Origin: a virus
Lineage: Duplodnaviria; Heunggongvirae; Uroviricota; Caudoviricetes
DNA: 33,753 bases
Strand: one strand, 5' to 3'
Virus record (IMG/VR): IMGVR_UViG_2579778538_000002
The notes beneath the pieces were generated by a model, which saw only the letters and a program-made list of their open reading frames with translations, ran no database searches and had not been told where the DNA came from. The position numbers and the translations under genes are program-made. Of this stretch, positions 22,308 through 33,392 are shown one piece after another; position 1 is the first letter of the stretch, and every line of letters starts with the position of its first letter.

Positions 22308-23036
22308 ATGACGCAGACACTGAATCCGGTCATCACTGTCACCGTGTCCGGTCCTGTGGGCAGCGGTAAAAGTTACGTACTGGCGCGAATAGAGGAAGTG
22401 GTGAAACAGGAATTCGGAAACAGCGTCATTGTCGACGCCGCAGACGTGGACGGTGAGCGCCGTATGAGTGGGGATGATCTGAGCACATGGCAGAAACCAC
22501 GGGCTGGCACAGTGATCAGGCTGGAGGAATACACGGGACAGGGCCTGTTGTCATACGGCGAGGAGCGTATCTGTCGGACGAATGAGCTGCTGGATGTTAT
22601 ATGCCCCACGGGCCGGCAACCCTGGATACTGCCCGATGCACTGCATGCCACCATTGCGGCACTGATGACAGTTTACGATCAGGAGCTGCTCATGAAGGAG
22701 TTACGTAAACTCACTGGTCAGTCAACAGAATGTTGTTCGTCCCCGAAGTACGGCAAACAGGAACACATCCCGATTAACCAGCCTCCCCGGTTCTTCGACG
22801 AATACCTTCTGACACCGGAAAATAAAGCTGAGCATGAAGAGATCAAAGCGGCGTTGTTCCGGGAAATCAGGAAGATTGCTGAAATGCAACTGGAGGGCGG
22901 GCTGGACAGAGTGATGGCGAGAGGAGAATGGGCATCGCTGTTTGAAAGAGTTTCCCCGGAATTACTTCCCCTCGCACTGGCTATCGGGATTATGCAGACA
23001 GCGGATAAACCTCACTTACGTTCATTAAACACGTAA
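22308..23036 (+). CDS. P-loop NTPase, kinase-like (Walker A GPVGSGKS at residues 15-22), unknown function
   Basis: 242 aa with strong Shine-Dalgarno (GAGGAG) before ATG; N-terminal strand-P-loop-helix arrangement VITVTVSGPVGSGKSYVLARIEE and candidate Walker B SVIVDAAD; transcribed divergently from the late operon. Confidence 0.6.
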   Translation: MTQTLNPVITVTVSGPVGSGKSYVLARIEEVVKQEFGNSVIVDAADVDGERRMSGDDLSTWQKPRAGTVIRLEEYTGQGLLSYGEERICRTNELLDVICPTGRQPWILPDALHATIAALMTVYDQELLMKELRKLTGQSTECCSSPKYGKQEHIPINQPPRFFDEYLLTPENKAEHEEIKAALFREIRKIAEMQLEGGLDRVMARGEWASLFERVSPELLPLALAIGIMQTADKPHLRSLNT

Positions 23037-23416
23037 CGCATAATCCGGGATACGCATTCAGCGATGACTGCATTTTCACCGGTTTTTACTGCATCCAGAA
23101 GTGACTCTTTAAATGGTACGGGCCGGGGCTGCAGAAAGGTCGGCATGGCATTGAGCAGACAGAGCGTTTTTTCCGTGAGGACGACATCAGCCGCTCCCAC
23201 AGCCAGCAACTGAGAGTAACGAATATAGCTGTTATCCCGAAGCCATATCAGCGTATCAATAAAACACCGGCACTTTTTCTGGTCGTGATCAACCTGGTCC
23301 GGGATATCGAAAAAACCAGAATAAATCAAAACCTGAGGTGCCGGATGCGTGTTCAGTAATCGGCAGAATATTTTGCCGGTGAGTACATAAAAATCATCAT
23401 TTAAGGAGTGCATCAT
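23012..23416 (-). CDS. hypothetical protein (134 aa)
   Basis: ORF convergent with the P-loop gene (25-bp 3' overlap) and head-to-head with the 71-aa gene; AT-richer than the phage core; coding status uncertain. Confidence 0.4.
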   Translation of the reverse strand: MMHSLNDDFYVLTGKIFCRLLNTHPAPQVLIYSGFFDIPDQVDHDQKKCRCFIDTLIWLRDNSYIRYSQLLAVGAADVVLTEKTLCLLNAMPTFLQPRPVPFKESLLDAVKTGENAVIAECVSRIMRYVFNERK

Positions 23417-23630
23417 GAATCCCCGATTAACGTTAACAGAACATCAGCGCCGTGCTGAAGCAGTGAACAATGTTCTGGAAGATATTATCCGGTTATACCG
23501 CGGAGAACTGAGTGTCTGTCGTGCCGCTTTTCATTTTCAGGGAATACAAAAGCAGTTTGATACTTCTGTTTTTGCAGAAGGTATTACTTATGCCCTGGAC
23601 CGGATAAGGTCAGAAAATCGCCCCGGATAA
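23415..23630 (+). CDS. hypothetical protein (71 aa)
   Basis: ATG preceded by AAGGAG with 6-nt spacing; no recognisable motifs. Confidence 0.45.
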   Translation: MNPRLTLTEHQRRAEAVNNVLEDIIRLYRGELSVCRAAFHFQGIQKQFDTSVFAEGITYALDRIRSENRPG

Positions 23631-23820
23631 TCCCTAAACCACATTAACAGAAATCCCGCCATCCCTGCCGCATCATGAAAGAACGACCAGCCCGGCACCC
23701 GAAAGCCGGGCTGGTCATCGCCCCACAGGAATGCGCTGTGAGCCGACCAAGGTTCAGTCAGTCTCGCGAGACCTGACCAGACTGCCATATTTTTTAATAA
23801 TTGTAAAAGGCTTGCAGATT

Positions 23821-24585
23821 ATGAAAATGCAGACATTACCCATCGTGCCGTGGATTGGTGGCAAACGCCGCCTTGCAAAACACATTCTGCCGCTGTTTCC
23901 GGCGCATGAATGTTATGTGGAGCCGTTTTGTGGGGCAGCAGCGCTCTATTTTCTTAAGACACCCGGCAAGATCGAAGTCATCAATGATATCAACGGTGAA
24001 CTGGTGAATCTGTACCGGGTGGTAAAGCATCACCTGGAAGAATTTGTCCGCCAGTTCAAATGGGCGCTGGTCAGCCGTCAGATCTACAAATGGCTGCAGA
24101 TCACCCCGGAAGAAACACTGACGGATATCCAGCGTGCGGCACGGTTCTACTACCTTCAGAAGCAGGCGTTTGGCGGCAAGGTGGCAGAGCACAGCTTCGG
24201 TACCTCCACCACATCCCCGCCACGCTTCAACCTGCTACGTATTGAAGAAGAACTGTCAGCGGCACACCTGCGGCTTTCCAGAACAGTCATAGAACACATG
24301 GACTGGCAACAGTGCATTGAGCGTTATGATCGTCCGCACACGCTGTTCTACTGCGACCCACCGTACCTGGGTACGGAAGGCTATGGTGTGGATTTTCCTG
24401 AAGGGAACTACTCGCGGCTGGCAGAGCTGGCCCGGTGCATCAGAGGAAAAATGATAATTTCGGTGAACGACATCCCGCAGATGCGCGAGGTGTTCACTGG
24501 ACTGAACATACAGACAGTGAATATCAACTACAGTCTGGCGGGTAAACCCACGCCGCGCCGTGAACTGCTAATCTGCAACTTCTGA
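23821..24585 (+). CDS. DNA N6-adenine methyltransferase, Dam-like (D12 class), orphan
   Basis: N-terminal AdoMet-binding region WIGGKRR...YVEPFCGAAALYF and catalytic motif DPPY (FYCDPPYLGTEGYG) as in E. coli Dam; start set at internal ATG 23821 (MKMQTLPIV...). No restriction endonuclease candidate adjacent. Confidence 0.85.
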   Translation: MKMQTLPIVPWIGGKRRLAKHILPLFPAHECYVEPFCGAAALYFLKTPGKIEVINDINGELVNLYRVVKHHLEEFVRQFKWALVSRQIYKWLQITPEETLTDIQRAARFYYLQKQAFGGKVAEHSFGTSTTSPPRFNLLRIEEELSAAHLRLSRTVIEHMDWQQCIERYDRPHTLFYCDPPYLGTEGYGVDFPEGNYSRLAELARCIRGKMIISVNDIPQMREVFTGLNIQTVNINYSLAGKPTPRRELLICNF

Positions 24586-24616
24586 AACAAAACCGGAAAG
24601 CACAATGCTTTCCGGT
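24581..24616 (-). terminator. candidate intrinsic terminator downstream of the repressor gene (hairpin also abuts the Dam stop)
   Basis: 10-11 bp perfect stem ACCGGAAAGC-ACAAT-GCTTTCCGGT (about 24592-24616), followed on the minus strand by TTTGTTTC; no U-tract on the plus side. Confidence 0.45.
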
Positions 24617-24701: not shown

Positions 24702-25058
24702 TCAGCCTGCGATTTTTCCTGGTTTTGGCTGAGTATAGAATCGCCCAATCTCAAGAAATGAGCGTTGTTGGTCTGGTGTCATGTCGTCAAAAGTATCTAT
24801 TAGTTTTTGTTTTTCTGGGGAAATTTGATTCTGGTTTCTAGTCATACCATCTGTGCTCATTCCAGTGAGCAACCAATTTACATCAACATTAAACTCTTGA
24901 TGCATCTTTAACAGAAACTCCCCTCCAGGCATCGCCTTTCCATTTTCAATCTGACTGATACCACCATTAGAAATACCTAAACGAGCTGCAAATTCTCTCT
25001 GGTTCAACCCTGCTTTCTTCCTCACAGAAATAACGCGCTCTCCTATATCTTTGCTCAT
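24702..25058 (-). CDS. prophage repressor, XRE-family HTH (functional analogue of Mu c)
   Basis: N-terminal helix-turn-helix LNQREFAARLGISNGGISQIENGK; transcribed divergently from the early operon; start codon lies inside an operator half-site. Confidence 0.8.
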   Translation of the reverse strand: MSKDIGERVISVRKKAGLNQREFAARLGISNGGISQIENGKAMPGGEFLLKMHQEFNVDVNWLLTGMSTDGMTRNQNQISPEKQKLIDTFDDMTPDQQRSFLEIGRFYTQPKPGKIAG

Positions 25059-25104
25059 AAAAGTGAATCTCTATCTTGATATGCTCATAATTATGAGCAA
25101 TAAT
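25052..25104. promoter_or_regulatory. operator/early promoter region: perfect 18-bp palindrome TGCTCATAATTATGAGCA (25082-25099) plus a third half-site TGCTCATAA (25052-25060)
   Basis: The palindrome exactly fills the 17-bp spacer between a candidate -35 TTGATA (25076-25081) and -10 AATAAT (25099-25104) pointing into the early operon; the extra half-site overlaps the repressor start codon. Confidence 0.6.
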
Positions 25105-28744: not shown

Positions 28745-29911
28745 ATGCTGGTACTGAAGCAGCAACTGAAAGAGGCCCGTATTCCACAGGCGGTGGTGGC
28801 GAGAGCTGTCGATGTTTCTGAGGCCACGCTGGCCCAGATTGTGAATCATAACGCGTGGCCCCGCACCAGCCCCGGAGAAGTGCGCCGGCGTCTTGCGTCC
28901 TGGCTGGAAAGTCAGGGGATTGATACAACGAAGAGTTTTGATGCTGTACAGGGCGCGGCCACGCCCCGTACAGCGGGTACCACAGATAAAACGAGCCTCA
29001 GTGAGGAAGAGAATATGTTACTCAAAAAACAGGTGTTATTTCCAGCAACCAAAAAAGCGTTTGGTCTTTTCCGTGACCCGTTCGCCGACGAAGCCATGCA
29101 GGGTTCTGATGATGTGTTCACCACCCCGGACATTCGCTACGTGCGTGAGGCGCTGTACCAGACAGCCCGTCATGGTGGGTTTATGGCCGTCATCGGTGAG
29201 TCCGGTGCGGGTAAATCCACGCTGCGCCGCGACCTGACTGAACGTATCAACCGCGAGAATGCGCCGGTAATTGTTATCGAGCCATACATCATCGCTATGG
29301 AAGACAACGATGTGAAAGGGAAAACCCTGAAGGCAGCAGCTATTGCCGAAGCCATTATCAGTACCATCGCACCACTGGAAAGCATCAGACGCAGTCAGGA
29401 CGCCCGTTTTCGCCAGTTGCATCGCGTCCTGAAAGACAGCAGCCAGGCGGGGTTCAGCCACGTTCTGGTGATTGAGGAGGCCCACAGTCTGCCCATTCCG
29501 ACACTGAAACACCTCAAACGCTTTTTTGAGCTGGAGTCCGGTTTCAAAAAACTGCTGTCCATCGTGCTGATTGGCCAGCCGGAACTGGCGACAAAACTGT
29601 CTGAACGCAATATGGAAGTCCGTGAAGTCGTTCAGCGCTGTGAGGTGGTCGAACTTCTGCCTCTGGACAATAACCTTGAAGAATTTCTGACGTTCAAACT
29701 GCAACGGGCCGGTAAACAGCTGACGGACATTATGGACGCCGGTGCAGTGGATGCCATACGTGCCCGCCTGAGCAATCCGGGAAGTCACCGTAAAAATATG
29801 GTCAGCCTGCTGTATCCGCTGGCCGTCAGTAACCTGGTAATAGCCGCCATGAATCTGGCCGCTGAAATCGGGGTTCCACAGGTCAACGCTGACGTTGTCA
29901 AAGGGGTTTAA
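28745..29911 (+). CDS. DNA transposition ATPase (Mu B-like AAA+ protein)
   Basis: Walker A GESGAGKST, Walker B-like HVLVIEEAH; start set at ATG 28745 after GAGGAGGG; immediately downstream of the transposase. Confidence 0.8.
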   Translation: MLVLKQQLKEARIPQAVVARAVDVSEATLAQIVNHNAWPRTSPGEVRRRLASWLESQGIDTTKSFDAVQGAATPRTAGTTDKTSLSEEENMLLKKQVLFPATKKAFGLFRDPFADEAMQGSDDVFTTPDIRYVREALYQTARHGGFMAVIGESGAGKSTLRRDLTERINRENAPVIVIEPYIIAMEDNDVKGKTLKAAAIAEAIISTIAPLESIRRSQDARFRQLHRVLKDSSQAGFSHVLVIEEAHSLPIPTLKHLKRFFELESGFKKLLSIVLIGQPELATKLSERNMEVREVVQRCEVVELLPLDNNLEEFLTFKLQRAGKQLTDIMDAGAVDAIRARLSNPGSHRKNMVSLLYPLAVSNLVIAAMNLAAEIGVPQVNADVVKGV

Positions 29912-29913
29912 TA

Positions 29914-30183
29914 ATGAAATCCACCACAGGTATCAACCAGCAAATCAGCAAAGTGCAGTCAGCCATTATGGCGCTTAAGGCGACGAACACGGATGTACAA
30001 AGCATCACCATCAGGGGTAACAAACCTGTCATCCGCGTTTCCCGGAGTGCGCATTGCATGCGCATGCTTGAGCAGGGAAAGGCCTGTTATCTGTATACCG
30101 GACATGACCACAGGGGATATTTCCGTCAGGGCGTTTTCGAACTGCACGGCTGTCGCGTCGTGTGGCCGGAATCTTTGTGGTAA
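29914..30183 (+). CDS. hypothetical early protein (89 aa)
   Basis: Tightly packed after B; no recognisable motifs. Confidence 0.45.
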   Translation: MKSTTGINQQISKVQSAIMALKATNTDVQSITIRGNKPVIRVSRSAHCMRMLEQGKACYLYTGHDHRGYFRQGVFELHGCRVVWPESLW

Positions 30184-30210
30184 TCAGCACAACTGGAGAA
30201 ATCATAAAAA

Positions 30211-30741
30211 ATGGCAAAAAGTACAAAAGGTGCAAAACGTATCAAGGCCGCAGCAGCACTCTGGGTGCCGGGGACACGTGAAGAGGTCATTGAGGGAATC
30301 AGACTACTCGGTGACGCACAACGTGAACTGGTCAGGGCTGAAACAGAAATGAATGACGCCATTGGCGATATCACCGCACGTTATGCCCCGCTCACCGAGA
30401 GCCTGAAAAAACGCATGGCCGAACTGCAGTCCGGTATTCAGACATGGTGTGAGGCACACCGTGATGAACTGACCGGCAACGGGAAGGTGAAGTTCGCTAA
30501 CCTCACCACCGGCGAGGTGCAGTGGCGAAACCGTCCGCCATCAGTCAGTATCCGTGGGGCGGATAATGTTATTGAATTACTGAGACGTCTGGGGCTTGAG
30601 CGCTTTATTCGTGTAAAAGAGGAAATAAATAAAGACGCTATCCTGAATGAAAAAGAGGCCGTGAAAAATATTCCCGGTATTTCCATTAAAAGCGACATTG
30701 AGGATTTTTCAATAATTCCTTTTGAGCAGGATGTGCAGTAA
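30211..30741 (+). CDS. gam: host-nuclease inhibitor protein Gam (Mu Gam-like, Ku-like DNA end binding)
   Basis: 176 aa; near-colinear with phage Mu Gam as I recall it (MAK..KRIK.AAA...RLETEMNDAI...WCEA.RDELT..GKVK.ANL.TG.V.WR.RPPSVSIRG...ERLGL.RFIR.K.EINK.AIL...IEDFSIIPFEQ). Confidence 0.9.
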   Translation: MAKSTKGAKRIKAAAALWVPGTREEVIEGIRLLGDAQRELVRAETEMNDAIGDITARYAPLTESLKKRMAELQSGIQTWCEAHRDELTGNGKVKFANLTTGEVQWRNRPPSVSIRGADNVIELLRRLGLERFIRVKEEINKDAILNEKEAVKNIPGISIKSDIEDFSIIPFEQDVQ

Positions 30742-30838
30742 ACACACCACGTTAATTATTTAATAAAAACATTTTCTTTTTTATTCCGACGTCAGCGCCG
30801 CGGGCTTCTGCACGCCGGAAACAGAGGAGAATTAAATC

Positions 30839-31033
30839 ATGATATTTAAATGTATTCAGTGCGAGAGGGATATAACAGCCCTGCGTTTTCACAGCGCCAT
30901 CGCCGTGATGTCCGGTAAATACCACATCCCTGCGGTACGCGTCACCCTGGTCTGCCCGTACTGCAGCCAGCATTTTTCGGCAGACGTGCCCGTCATGGAA
31001 TTCTCCCGCCCTGACAGGGAGGACTCGCAATGA
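30839..31033 (+). CDS. small zinc-ribbon protein (CxxC...CxxC)
   Basis: 64 aa with CIQC and CPYC pairs about 30 residues apart; Shine-Dalgarno GAGGAG upstream. Confidence 0.45.
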   Translation: MIFKCIQCERDITALRFHSAIAVMSGKYHIPAVRVTLVCPYCSQHFSADVPVMEFSRPDREDSQ

Positions 31034-31302
31034 TTACCCCACAGGAAGCACGACAGCGCACCCGAACCCTTGTTGAACACTATGTCAACGAGTGTGAATG
31101 CCGCGACCTCACCGATGTGAAGCACGTCCTGACGGCGCTAATCAGCATGGCCACACAGGCCATTGTGGCGACCAACGGAAAGGAGGCTGCCCTGCAGGTA
31201 CTGATGAACACACTCACCCACACGGCAGAGCATGAGGTGCCGTACCGGATGGAAACCACTGCAGAAGGCGGCCTGCACATCACCGTCAGCCGGAAGCACT
31301 GA
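31030..31302 (+). CDS. hypothetical early protein (90 aa)
   Basis: ATGA overlap with upstream gene; contains CEC motif; no family assigned. Confidence 0.4.
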   Translation: MITPQEARQRTRTLVEHYVNECECRDLTDVKHVLTALISMATQAIVATNGKEAALQVLMNTLTHTAEHEVPYRMETTAEGGLHITVSRKH

Positions 31303-31311
31303 GGGCGCGGC

Positions 31312-31608
31312 ATGACACGAAACACCGAACTCACCCGCACCGCCCTCTACCGTCTGGCCCTGCAGCGTTTCGGGCCGGACGCACAGGCCCTGAAACTGGC
31401 AGAAGAGGCCGCTGAACTGGCGGCCAGTGCCGCCCGCAACCTGAACGGACAGGGCAGCGAAAGTGACCTCGCGGCAGAGCTGGCAGACGTGGAAATCATG
31501 ACAGAGCAACTGCGCCTTCAGGGGATGGACCGGCTGATTGACTTCCACAAACAGAAAAAACTGGAACGTCTGGCTGCACGACTGGGCGTGATTTACACGA
31601 ACGAGTAA
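31312..31608 (+). CDS. MazG-like nucleotide pyrophosphohydrolase (small all-alpha NTP-PPase)
   Basis: 98 aa with paired acidic motifs LAEEAAELAASA and AAELADVEIM, resembling the EExxE...ExxD metal-binding motifs of MazG-type proteins; assignment from motif only. Confidence 0.5.
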   Translation: MTRNTELTRTALYRLALQRFGPDAQALKLAEEAAELAASAARNLNGQGSESDLAAELADVEIMTEQLRLQGMDRLIDFHKQKKLERLAARLGVIYTNE

Positions 31609-31622
31609 CCGGGAGGCATTCA

Positions 31623-31838
31623 ATGGCTGACATACTCAGGGAAATCACCGCATGGACACTGATTCTTACTGGCCTGGCGACATGCCTCAGTGCGGGGGCA
31701 GCCCTGGCTGCCCTGCTGATGCACATAACAACACAGTGGTTATGGGAAAAGCTTAAAGCAGCATACAGCCTGAAAGAGCTGTCCGACGCTGTCCGGGCAT
31801 GGAAACGGCAGAAAAATACCGGAGATACAGAACAATGA
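31623..31838 (+). CDS. small membrane protein (one TMD)
   Basis: 71 aa; hydrophobic segment WTLILTGLATCLSAGAALAALLM. Confidence 0.4.
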   Translation: MADILREITAWTLILTGLATCLSAGAALAALLMHITTQWLWEKLKAAYSLKELSDAVRAWKRQKNTGDTEQ

Positions 31839-32518
31839 CAGACCAGAATAAACACATTGAGAAACTGAAAAAGTTGCTGGCGCTGGCCGCATCCGGCAAC
31901 CCGCACGAGGCCGCTCTGGCACTGCGCCGAGCCCGTAAACTGATGGATGTTCACGGCATCACACATTCCGACATTGCTATGAGTGATATTGATGAAACCA
32001 TCAGTCACTACTGGCCGACAGGCAGTCTCCGTCCACCGCGCTACATGCTGGGCCTGATGAACATCATCCGCGAGGTATTTGGTGTTAACTCCATCATTCA
32101 CCCCGGCACGCATCCGTCTGTGGGGTTCTACGGCAACCGGGAACGTGCGGCACTGGCTGCATACACCTGGGAAGTGCTGGCCCGTCAGCTGAAAAAGGCG
32201 CGTCAGCAGTATATCAGTGCACAGAACAAAAGAATAAAAACCGCCACCCGCACCAGCCGTGGAGACCAGTTTGCCGAAGGCTGGGTGCTGGCCGTTATCA
32301 GTGAAATACAGTCCTTTGCCCTGACCGATGATGAGCGTGAACTGATGCAGCAGTGGCTGGAACATAAATACCCGCAGACGCAAACCACCAGGGCGCGTAA
32401 ACCGGGAAGAAGCCGCAATGGCGACGCCTCGCGCTATGCGGGGTTTCGTGAAGGGCAGAACGTCAGACTGCACCGCCCGGTCAGTGGGCAGGAACAACAG
32501 AAACTGGAGGCCAGATGA
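31835..32518 (+). CDS. DUF2786-like early protein
   Basis: Start set at ATG 31835 (GGAGA upstream); N-terminus HIEKLKKLLALAASGNPHEAALALRRARKLMDVHGI matches the DUF2786 pattern common in prophage early regions (from memory). Confidence 0.5.
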   Translation: MTDQNKHIEKLKKLLALAASGNPHEAALALRRARKLMDVHGITHSDIAMSDIDETISHYWPTGSLRPPRYMLGLMNIIREVFGVNSIIHPGTHPSVGFYGNRERAALAAYTWEVLARQLKKARQQYISAQNKRIKTATRTSRGDQFAEGWVLAVISEIQSFALTDDERELMQQWLEHKYPQTQTTRARKPGRSRNGDASRYAGFREGQNVRLHRPVSGQEQQKLEAR

Positions 32519-32745
32519 TTACGCTATCAGGTAAAAGCCGGAAATTAAAAGCCTGCCGAATATCTGCCAGATACCTTTTTGCCCGCGCCTTTTTTAAGAA
32601 CGTCAGGCCGGGGATCACAATTGGTGTTATTGCCGGACGCGAACAGGTTGAAAAATACATGTCAGGTGCATGGTGGAATAACGACCCTGTCATTGCTGCC
32701 CGTAATATTCATATCGAATGGGGAGGTATTCAGAATGACTACTGA
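32515..32745 (+). CDS. hypothetical early protein (76 aa)
   Basis: ATGA overlap with upstream gene; basic; no family assigned. Confidence 0.35.
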   Translation: MITLSGKSRKLKACRISARYLFARAFFKNVRPGITIGVIAGREQVEKYMSGAWWNNDPVIAARNIHIEWGGIQNDY

Positions 32746-32941
32746 AACCATTGTCTGTTTTCTTTTCTGGTATATGTACGCAGGATCATGCAGCGCAAGA
32801 CTTCATCGTTCCCTGGGCTATGGCAGGCACTACGACACCGCGCATTACATCCTGTACATGACCGCCGTCATGTTGTTCTGGCCAGTCACCCTGCCAGCTG
32901 CAACCGACATTGTTGCCGACAGACTGAAAAAAAGGAGATGA
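32735..32941 (+). CDS. small hydrophobic protein (two predicted TMDs)
   Basis: Internal ATG of track ORF 32579-32941 preceded by GGGAGG; hydrophobic segments VCFLFWYMYAG and YILYMTAVMLFWPVTL. Confidence 0.35.
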   Translation: MTTETIVCFLFWYMYAGSCSARLHRSLGYGRHYDTAHYILYMTAVMLFWPVTLPAATDIVADRLKKRR

Positions 32942-32942
32942 T

Positions 32943-33392
32943 ATGCAGAAAAAACGCCTGATACAGCTTATCCATATTGCCCGTAATGAACTGGGTATGG
33001 ATGAAGACACCTACCGCCAGATGTTACAGGGGCTGACCGGTAAAGCCTCAACCAAAGGAATGGATACCACACAACTAAACTGCGTGCTGGAATCCATGAA
33101 AAAGAAAGGCTTTCGCGTTAAACCAGCCAGAAAAGCCAGCTCCGGTTTACCGCTTGATAACCATCCGCAGTCCAGGAAAATTCGTGCGCTATGGCTTGAA
33201 ATGGCTGCTGCCGGCATTGTTCGTGACCGTTCAGAAAATGCATTAGCGAGGTGGATCAAGCGGGAAACGGGCATCAGCGCCCTGCGCTGGCTCAGTACTG
33301 AACAGGCAAGCAGTGTTATTGAGAAACTGAAGAAGTGGCAGCGCAGAGCTGCGGGAGTCAAACATGAGCGACCTGAATCAGTTTCGAAGTAA
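32943..33392 (+). CDS. gemA: GemA/gp16-like early regulatory protein
   Basis: 149 aa directly upstream of mor as in Mu; N-terminus RLIQLIHIARNELGMDEDTYRQMLQGLTGKAS fits the Mu gp16/GemA family pattern (from memory). Confidence 0.55.
   Translation: MQKKRLIQLIHIARNELGMDEDTYRQMLQGLTGKASTKGMDTTQLNCVLESMKKKGFRVKPARKASSGLPLDNHPQSRKIRALWLEMAAAGIVRDRSENALARWIKRETGISALRWLSTEQASSVIEKLKKWQRRAAGVKHERPESVSK

Follow-up and report, generated by a model that had tools for sequence, protein, structure and literature searches.

In phage Mu, kil, gam and gemA/mor lie between B and C in a region described as 'semi-essential' (PMC4553209). The full semi-essential early (SEE) region, which comprises kil, gp6–gp9, gam, gp11–gp15, gemA and mor, is placed between the gene for the transposition ATPase B and GemA/Mor, and in the Mu record kil directly follows B. 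The early region of BcepMu is made up of gp07, gp06 (a 'pyrophosphatase'), gp05 (DUF3164), gp04 (HU), gp03, gp02 (GemA) and gp01 (Mor). Here we analyzed positions 29914–32941 of a 33,753-nucleotide (nt) Caudoviricetes sequence, the IMG/VR record IMGVR_UViG_2579778538_000002 (the window denotes this whole sequence). In this block of 3,028 bp, nine genes (g1 to g9, with g2 encoding Gam) separate the gene for a B-equivalent ATPase from gemA. By its position and its kil-like, gam and gemA genes, the block is classed from its sequence as a Mu-type SEE region, closest to the BcepMu group, and we hold with good confidence that it forms the accessory distal part of a single early operon in a BcepMu-like transposable prophage of Escherichia coli.

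Gene content and order of the block

The block and its boundaries contain the following features, with protein lengths in amino acids (aa), E values for matches to PHROG families and, where given, the isoelectric point (pI).

28745–29911, plus strand: B-equivalent transposition ATPase, upstream boundary of the block; RefSeq 'ExeA family protein', TIGR03015-like P-loop
29914–30183, plus strand: g1, 89 aa, basic (pI 9.9); phrog_2041, E 3e-36
30211–30741, plus strand: Gam (g2), 176 aa, DNA-end-binding host-nuclease inhibitor; PF07352; phrog_491, E 5.5e-73
30742–30838, no strand: AT-rich intergenic gap, 97 nt, the sole sizeable gap of the block
30839–31033, plus strand: g3, 64 aa, Cys4 protein (CxxC...CP[HY]C), putative zinc ribbon; phrog_3401, E 1.6e-40
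31030–31302, plus strand: g4, 90 aa, variably present (22/108 loci); phrog_3691, E 4e-56
31312–31608, plus strand: g5, 98 aa, predicted all-alpha nucleoside triphosphate (NTP) pyrophosphohydrolase of the MazG/HisE superfamily; phrog_2245, E 5.5e-34, acidic motifs
31623–31838, plus strand: g6, 71 aa, small membrane protein with one span; phrog_3958, E 1e-41
31835–32518, plus strand: g7, 227 aa, DUF2786 plus DUF7168, pI 10.1; PF10979, PF23771
32515–32745, plus strand: g8, 76 aa, basic, variably present (22/108 loci); phrog_3681, E 6.5e-55
32735–32941, plus strand: g9, 68 aa, probable two-span membrane protein; phrog_6436, E 1.2e-44
32943–33392, plus strand: GemA, downstream boundary of the block; PF06252, 140.1 bits

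Nine plus-strand open reading frames (ORFs) lie between B (stop 29911) and GemA (start 32943), and the RefSeq/PGAP calls give the identical nine. The initial annotation, made from the sequence alone, had described nine tightly coupled genes here, and this description holds: the junctions range between overlaps of up to 11 nt and gaps of up to 97 nt (from B to GemA, in order, +2, +27, +97, −4, +9, +14, −4, −4, −11 and +1 nt), ATGA overlaps occur at three of them, and a GGAG-type ribosome-binding site precedes most starts. All nine products matched PHROG families end to end (E 1e-34 to 1e-77). When variable columns were counted by codon position across homologs from other genomes, position 3 of the plus-strand frame was the richest for the seven small genes g1, g3, g4, g5, g6, g8 and g9; g7 gave no result in this count and Gam was left out. 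Because of the PHROG matches and this concentration of variation at codon position 3, all nine are judged to be real genes. Promoter-like and terminator-like sites within the block showed no excess over shuffled sequence, and an Rfam scan of the window matched no RNA family.

The gap at 30742–30838 is strongly AT-rich and then GC-rich (ttaattatttaataaaaacattttcttttttt...gcgccgcgggc). It contains no consensus terminator or promoter and no Rfam match, and it coincides with a mosaic junction, the exchange of Gam for a DUF3164 gene described below taking place upstream of it. Separately, an IS1 element interrupts the block in two complete E. coli genomes (NZ_CP076697.1 and NZ_CP196276.1). Gam is listed twice under the block match in NZ_CP196276.1, which suggests that the insertion split Gam in that genome; the interruptions also suggest that the lysogen can do without the interrupted gene.

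Escherichia phage PhiKM (PQ738613.1; classed in Bcepmuvirus) matches the block at 100% identity. Among the 5426 complete E. coli genomes, 629 carry a match to the block, with coverage of at least 80% in 619 genomes and identity of at least 99% in 414 of the 629 matching records. Both A and B are of the BcepMu type (an rve transposase and an ExeA-type ATPase, 68% and 59% identical to BcepMu gp09 and gp08, respectively), and A, B, the Kil-like g1, Gam and the genes that follow, up to GemA and a confirmed Mor, are read in this order from one strand.

Gene order was compared across 108 loci chosen for their g5 relatives and scored by tblastn, 62 of which also encode GemA and were taken as Mu-type early operons. 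A single fixed order of slots runs through these loci: B is succeeded by g1 or Kil, this by Gam or DUF3164, and the MazG-like gene and GemA close the series. Counted over 107 loci, the order appears in 62, among them 17 Muvirus-type contigs with a different B protein and bona fide Kil. Among BcepMu-like enterobacterial prophages the retained core consists of A, B, g1, g3, g5, g7, g9, GemA and Mor, while Gam, g4, g6 and g8 come and go. A MuB-type B protein is encoded in 18 contigs, in which the order is MuB, Kil, DUF3164 or Gam, a MazG-like gene (42–51% identical to g5), GemA and Mor. The predicted MazG-like enzyme is, on this gene order, a recurrent early function in two lineages of transposable phages and not peculiar to the studied prophage. 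These gene calls, family and fold assignments and syntenies are shown by the analysis. They bear out the anatomy of a semi-essential early region packed with small genes that had initially been proposed, namely its position from B to GemA/Mor and its Gam, Cys4, MazG-like and DUF2786 members, but not the functional reading attached to it, which is weighed below.

Kil-like, Gam and MazG-like genes

The start codon of g1 lies 2 nt past the stop codon of B. A profile–profile comparison (hhalign) of the g1 family with an enriched alignment of Kil gave a probability of 84–88% and P values of 3.4e-6 to 7e-6 over 70–73 columns. Controls were far weaker, with P = 0.43 for the reversed alignment, 0.02 at best among 30 column shuffles and no value below 0.05 against unrelated families. 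The enrichment drew on Muvirus-type viral contigs, which supplied 17 diverged Kil homologs (39–55% identical to Mu Kil); with a shallow alignment of Mu Kil alone or of close relatives, P was 0.004, and the match was convincing only once these homologs had been added. A C-terminal motif, L-x-G-C-[RQ]-[VI]-x-W, is common to g1 and Kil. Gene position agrees with the profile: where detected, g1 stands in the slot after B in 39/40 ExeA-type-B loci, and a Kil homolog does so in 17/18 MuB-type loci. The two never share a locus, and each tracks the type of B protein. We regard g1 as a probable distant homolog and positional equivalent of Mu Kil.

Gam matched PF07352 with 139.6 bits against a cut-off of 28.3, over profile positions 1–148 of 149, and is 61.5% identical to Mu Gam over 169 aa, so that the initial call of Gam is upheld. 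The Gam slot, which follows g1 or Kil and precedes the MazG-like gene, is held in sister prophages by a DUF3164 protein of about 203 aa that resembles BcepMu gp05 (for example, L006:5104-5715 and L064:4288-4905 among the surveyed loci). Gam and DUF3164 never co-occur in otherwise syntenic operons: Gam is present in 20 and DUF3164 in 19 of the ExeA-type-B loci, and in 3 and 15 of the MuB-type-B loci, respectively. DUF3164 may stand in for Gam functionally.

The family matched by g5, phrog_2245, is annotated 'nucleoside triphosphate pyrophosphohydrolase', and g5 is assigned the helical-bundle MazG–HisE fold. It carries the acidic motifs E31-E32-x-x-E35 and E56-x-x-D59 on two helices, both in register with those of the nucleotide pyrophosphohydrolase 5ie9. 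Across 71 relatives E31 and D59 never vary, and conservation is at least 90% for E32, E35 and E56; within the close family E31, E32, E56 and D59 are all invariant. Near the C terminus, K83 and R86 are each at least 90% conserved. Searched directly, g5 stays below the curated models (PF03819, PF12643, PF01503 and NCBIfam), the best being PRA-PH with 15.5 against 21.3 bits; TIGR03188 scores 14.6 against 42.7. A transitive link exists, as 7 of the 71 relatives match Pfam MazG (PF03819) directly at E ≤ 1e-3. A sequence search of the PDB with g5 returned no significant match, and the family profile reached MazG-type structures at E values of 0.01–0.4. Because of the phrog_2245 match, the motifs in register with 5ie9 and the transitive link to PF03819, membership of g5 in the MazG/HisE superfamily is confirmed as a superfamily-level prediction. 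The initial description of a MazG-like protein with paired acidic motifs is therefore correct at that level, although Pfam thresholds are missed.

Since the catalytic motif is conserved, we commit to a predicted chemistry for g5, the Mg2+-dependent conversion of (deoxy)nucleoside triphosphates ((d)NTPs) to the monophosphates ((d)NMPs) and pyrophosphate (PPi). An exhaustive profile search retrieved 10,527 cluster representatives at E ≤ 1e-3, of which 2,046 reached E ≤ 1e-10; the phrog_2245 subfamily, as delimited by this profile, is large, phage-borne and mostly unannotated. The initial statement that only Gam is recognizable in the block was accordingly too pessimistic, g1 being a probable relative of Kil and the MazG-like g5 belonging to a very large family.

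Two further observations concern the surroundings and the length of g5. One database protein (P0036) reads as a g3-like Cys4 protein joined to a g5-like MazG domain, and g3 adjoins g5, without g4, in many sister prophages; the fusion may be genuine, or it may be a frameshift or read-through artifact. In Muvirus-type IMG/VR contigs (L063–L081 and L093; for example, L064:4986-5483 and L069:4318-4794) the g5 homolog bears a C-terminal helical extension of about 65 aa, which is often present in the MuB-type contigs.

The remaining small genes and the prophage setting

The four cysteines of g3 (C5, C8, C39 and C42) are invariant in 26 distinct homologs with identities down to 30%, and g3 is very probably a zinc ribbon, though a putative one. 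Here the initial zinc-ribbon call stands in its two CxxC knuckles but not in any model match, all zinc models being sub-threshold (Sgf11, 19.2 against 26.4 bits; YnfU, 14 against 27; Pfam and NCBIfam). In the GenBank record of PhiKM, a minus-strand hypothetical ORF (30752–30973 in the window) is annotated where PGAP calls g3.

The largest product of the block, g7, passes both of its Pfam models (PF10979, 42.9 bits against 23.9; PF23771 (DUF7168), 90.4 bits against 25.5), in keeping with the initial DUF2786-like call; its start is the RefSeq ATG at 31835, not 31799. All full-length homologs carry both domains and come from Enterobacterales, Aeromonas, Shewanella and acetic-acid bacteria. The family shares a conserved helix, K-R-x-K-x-x-T-K-x-x-R-x-D-x-F-x-E-G-W, and that g7 binds nucleic acid is a reasonable guess. 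In a high-confidence structure model, the alpha/beta core of DUF7168 is weakly KH-like; a type I KH domain was considered for this core and rejected, as the Foldseek match was not significant and a GxxG loop is not among the conserved features. In a full-text search of the literature, DUF2786 turned up in passing mentions only, in papers whose titles and abstracts are on other subjects. PDB sequence searches with g7 and with the g1 family gave no significant match.

Two small membrane proteins had been proposed at the outset. One of them, g6, has a clear span, with a hydrophobic segment at residues ~12–36 and a Kyte–Doolittle 19-residue mean of 1.98. It was found only in 12 loci, all close E. 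coli relatives, as a lineage-specific insert. The other, g9, has two conserved hydrophobic stretches and a W-P-x-x-L-P motif but, with a Kyte–Doolittle maximum of 1.52 against a cut-off of 1.6, falls just short and is a probable membrane protein only. Its start is the ATG at 32735, as in RefSeq; the PHROG match covers residues 53–120 of a longer ORF that begins with TTG. Of the variably present genes, g4 shares an ATGA overlap with g3, and g8 shares one with g7 and has 18, 13 and 43 variable columns at codon positions 1, 2 and 3. No PDB or Pfam match was found for g4 and no PDB match for g8, and neither has a detectable relative of known function.

Two features lie upstream of the early operon.

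24702–25058, minus strand: HTH_3 repressor
25076–25104, plus strand: promoter-like TTGATA-17-AATAAT, 10/12 match

The promoter-like sequence, which has the top sigma-70-like score for the right third of the window, is flanked by the gene for the HTH_3 repressor on one side and the first early ORF (25152) on the other. Together with the repressor gene, it probably marks the early promoter and operator region. Past it come, in order, small regulators, DUF3102, A and B. At the other end, in E. coli 4/1-1, the prophage terminates just past Mor, and the host genes ycaL, cmk and rpsA come next. A D12-class N6-adenine DNA methyltransferase, not part of the early operon, is encoded at 23731–24585 on the plus strand (PF02086, E 8.7e-29), in the stretch that separates the lysis genes from the repressor; two further plus-strand genes share this stretch (22308–23036 and 23415–23630), and a strong terminator-like hairpin on the minus strand follows (24592–24616). 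This group looks like moron or anti-restriction cargo.

Proposed account, alternatives and known systems

For the block as a whole, we infer transcription as a single unit, catalytic activity and all physiological roles in the following account. Once the repressor is relieved, transcription would most likely start from near 25076–25104, and the transcript would carry the regulators, A, B, the nine translationally coupled genes, GemA and Mor. From the slot after B, the Kil-like g1 would act like Mu Kil and disturb the division or shape of the host cell. In the second slot, Gam (DUF3164 in sister phages) would shield linear infecting or transposing DNA from RecBCD-type nucleases. The third slot would supply g5 as a small homo-oligomeric Mg2+-dependent enzyme that turns (d)NTPs into (d)NMP and PPi, its most likely job being to condition or clean the nucleotide pool in replicative transposition. 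A fourth slot would hold the basic DUF2786/DUF7168 protein g7, probably a nucleic-acid-binding protein. Interspersed among these would be the Cys4 protein, which is kept in the BcepMu-like core, the two small membrane proteins and two further proteins, as exchangeable small cargo.

Several points weigh against this account. The roles given to the nine genes are predictions from sequence, and the house-cleaning role of g5 is a default reading. The link between g1 and Kil consists of a single profile–profile comparison and gene position; neither g1 nor its relatives match the Pfam Kil model (PF26843), and g1 matches no Kil PHROG (g1 matches only phrog_2041, Mu Kil matches phrog_2743, phrog_6381 and phrog_2679). 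For g7, the KH resemblance lacks statistical significance in Foldseek and the conserved GxxG loop.

The initial annotation had assigned host take-over and anti-defense functions to such a region and had raised alarmone hydrolysis by the MazG-like protein. In its full form, this would make g5 a counter-defense factor that hydrolyzes (p)ppGpp or pyrophosphate-containing immune nucleotides and so blunts abortive infection, and the block an anti-defense island, which we consider unlikely. In a PADLOC search, which covered catalogued defense components only, no model was matched by any of the nine proteins (a single chance-level hit to JetC, E 0.026 and 10 bits, is not credible), none came anywhere near an NCBIfam cut-off, and no known anti-defense gene was seen linked to the block. 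With all three of these blank, the claim has gained no computed support and stays conjectural. Going by the established enzymology of these proteins, MazG chemistry cannot open cyclic oligonucleotides, which are without a pyrophosphate bond, and this too counts against an anti-defense role. What speaks for it is the position of g5 in what we take as an early operon, a timing suited to counter-defense, together with its retention, the widest of any accessory gene in the block, and the mosaic, exchangeable slots beside it, as in accessory or anti-defense regions. A precedent also exists among phage MazG-like enzymes: Atd1 is reported to deplete (p)ppGpp and to protect from TIR-STING toxicity (bioRxiv 10.1101/2022.06.09.495361). 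Other members of the group are counter-examples, as cyanophage MazG neither binds nor hydrolyzes (p)ppGpp and prefers dGTP and dCTP (PMC6850273), and MazZ of S-2L is a biosynthetic enzyme specific for (d)GTP (PMC8342488). A broader proposal, in which an Atd1-like MazG/HisE enzyme acting on (p)ppGpp or a linear pyrophosphate signal is a core early function of transposable phages, kept in the slot past Gam or DUF3164 by two lineages with unrelated B proteins, and DUF3164 substitutes for Gam, is similarly doubtful.

Two other readings question the genes themselves. It is very unlikely that some of the small ORFs are annotation artifacts, with g3 spurious and the minus-strand ORF real. The PhiKM record annotates the latter, and the antisense frame is open for 48–106 codons in many homologs; the length of this ORF is uninformative on strand, and codon-position counts were used instead. 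These gave 36, 27 and 46 variable columns at plus-frame positions 1, 2 and 3, that is, 46 at plus-frame position 3 against 36 at position 1, which is position 3 of the antisense frame. The end-to-end match to phrog_3401 is on the plus-strand product, PGAP calls the plus strand, and g3 overlaps g4 by ATGA and is preceded by a GGAG ribosome-binding site. The PHROG match, the four cysteines that stay invariant down to 30% identity and the codon-position pattern therefore favor g3 over the PhiKM ORF as the probable gene. Still harder to credit is that the block is dispensable, drifting DNA of a cryptic prophage, without current function. The IS1 interruptions, with Gam apparently split in one genome, would fit such decay, as would the merely 'semi-essential' status of the corresponding region of Mu (PMC4553209). 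Against it stand the identity to a deposited phage, PhiKM, the retention of at least 80% of the block across the 619 genomes with 414 of the 629 records at least 99% identical, and genes that are recognizable across genera at 30–75% identity with a coding-type codon-position pattern (g1, g3 and g9 by homolog alignment, g4–g8 by full-length tblastn matches).

The prophage is present in about 1 in 9 complete E. coli genomes, many from human isolates, and eight of its nine block genes were deposited as 'hypothetical' or 'DUF'. Sequence and annotation, mostly as hypothetical, were already public; new are the superfamily assignment of g5, the link between g1 and Kil, the slot order in two lineages, the alternation of Gam and DUF3164 and the strand correction in the PhiKM record. 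Three genes can now be given roles open to testing (Kil-like for g1, MazG-type NTP pyrophosphohydrolase for g5, Cys4 protein for g3), and the slot order common to Mu-like and BcepMu-like phages provides a frame for the early needs of transposable phages. Should the substrates of g5 include alarmones or immune nucleotides, the block would hold a very widespread counter-defense gene; with g5 as a nucleotide-pool sanitizer, the region would be an ordinary one.

Compared with Mu, the block occupies the same position between B and GemA/Mor and has homologous GemA and Mor proteins, the 61.5% identical Gam and a small basic protein after B that aligns with Kil. Cys-rich mini-proteins occur in Mu as well (gp6 and gp13); Mu gp6 was set aside as a counterpart of g3, as only 12 residues with CP-x-C match and the PHROGs differ. 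Mu differs in having MuA/MuB instead of the BcepMu-type A and B, and it has no MazG-like gene and no DUF2786 gene. When the window proteins were compared by BLASTP with the early proteins of Mu and BcepMu, only Gam, GemA and Mor were matched. BcepMu shares the genus-level class and A and B with the block, and it has a 'pyrophosphatase' gene in its early operon and DUF3164 where the block has Gam. Its gp07, like g1, follows B and weakly matches the PHROG of g1. Unlike the block, BcepMu lacks Gam, DUF2786, the Cys4 protein and the small membrane proteins. The gp06 'pyrophosphatase' was tried as an ortholog of g5 and rejected: the hhalign comparison was not significant, only the ExxD turn aligns, and gp06 belongs to a different subfamily.

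At the level of single proteins, Mu Kil (PF26843, phrog_2743) resembles g1 in its place directly after B, its comparable length and its basic character. The profile alignment spans the full length; RP-x-[IL] is a conserved segment in it, and GC-x-[IV]-x-W stands at the C terminus. It differs in that identity is only ~15–19% and g1 lies outside the Kil Pfam and PHROG models. The helical bundle of ~90–110 aa predicted for g5 is shared with MazG, integron iMazG (2q5z/2q73), HisE (3c90, 1yvw), SSO3215 (1vmg), YpjD (2gta) and 5ie9, and the EExxE...ExxD motifs of such enzymes, with MazZ, cyanophage MazG and Atd1 as phage examples, are in register with those of g5. The conserved C-terminal basic residue of g5 (K83, R86) recalls the catalytic R83 of MazZ (PMC8342488). 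Unlike these enzymes, g5 scores under the MazG and PRA-PH thresholds of Pfam and NCBIfam; it belongs to a phage subfamily of its own that is tied to a fixed early-operon slot in Mu-type phages.

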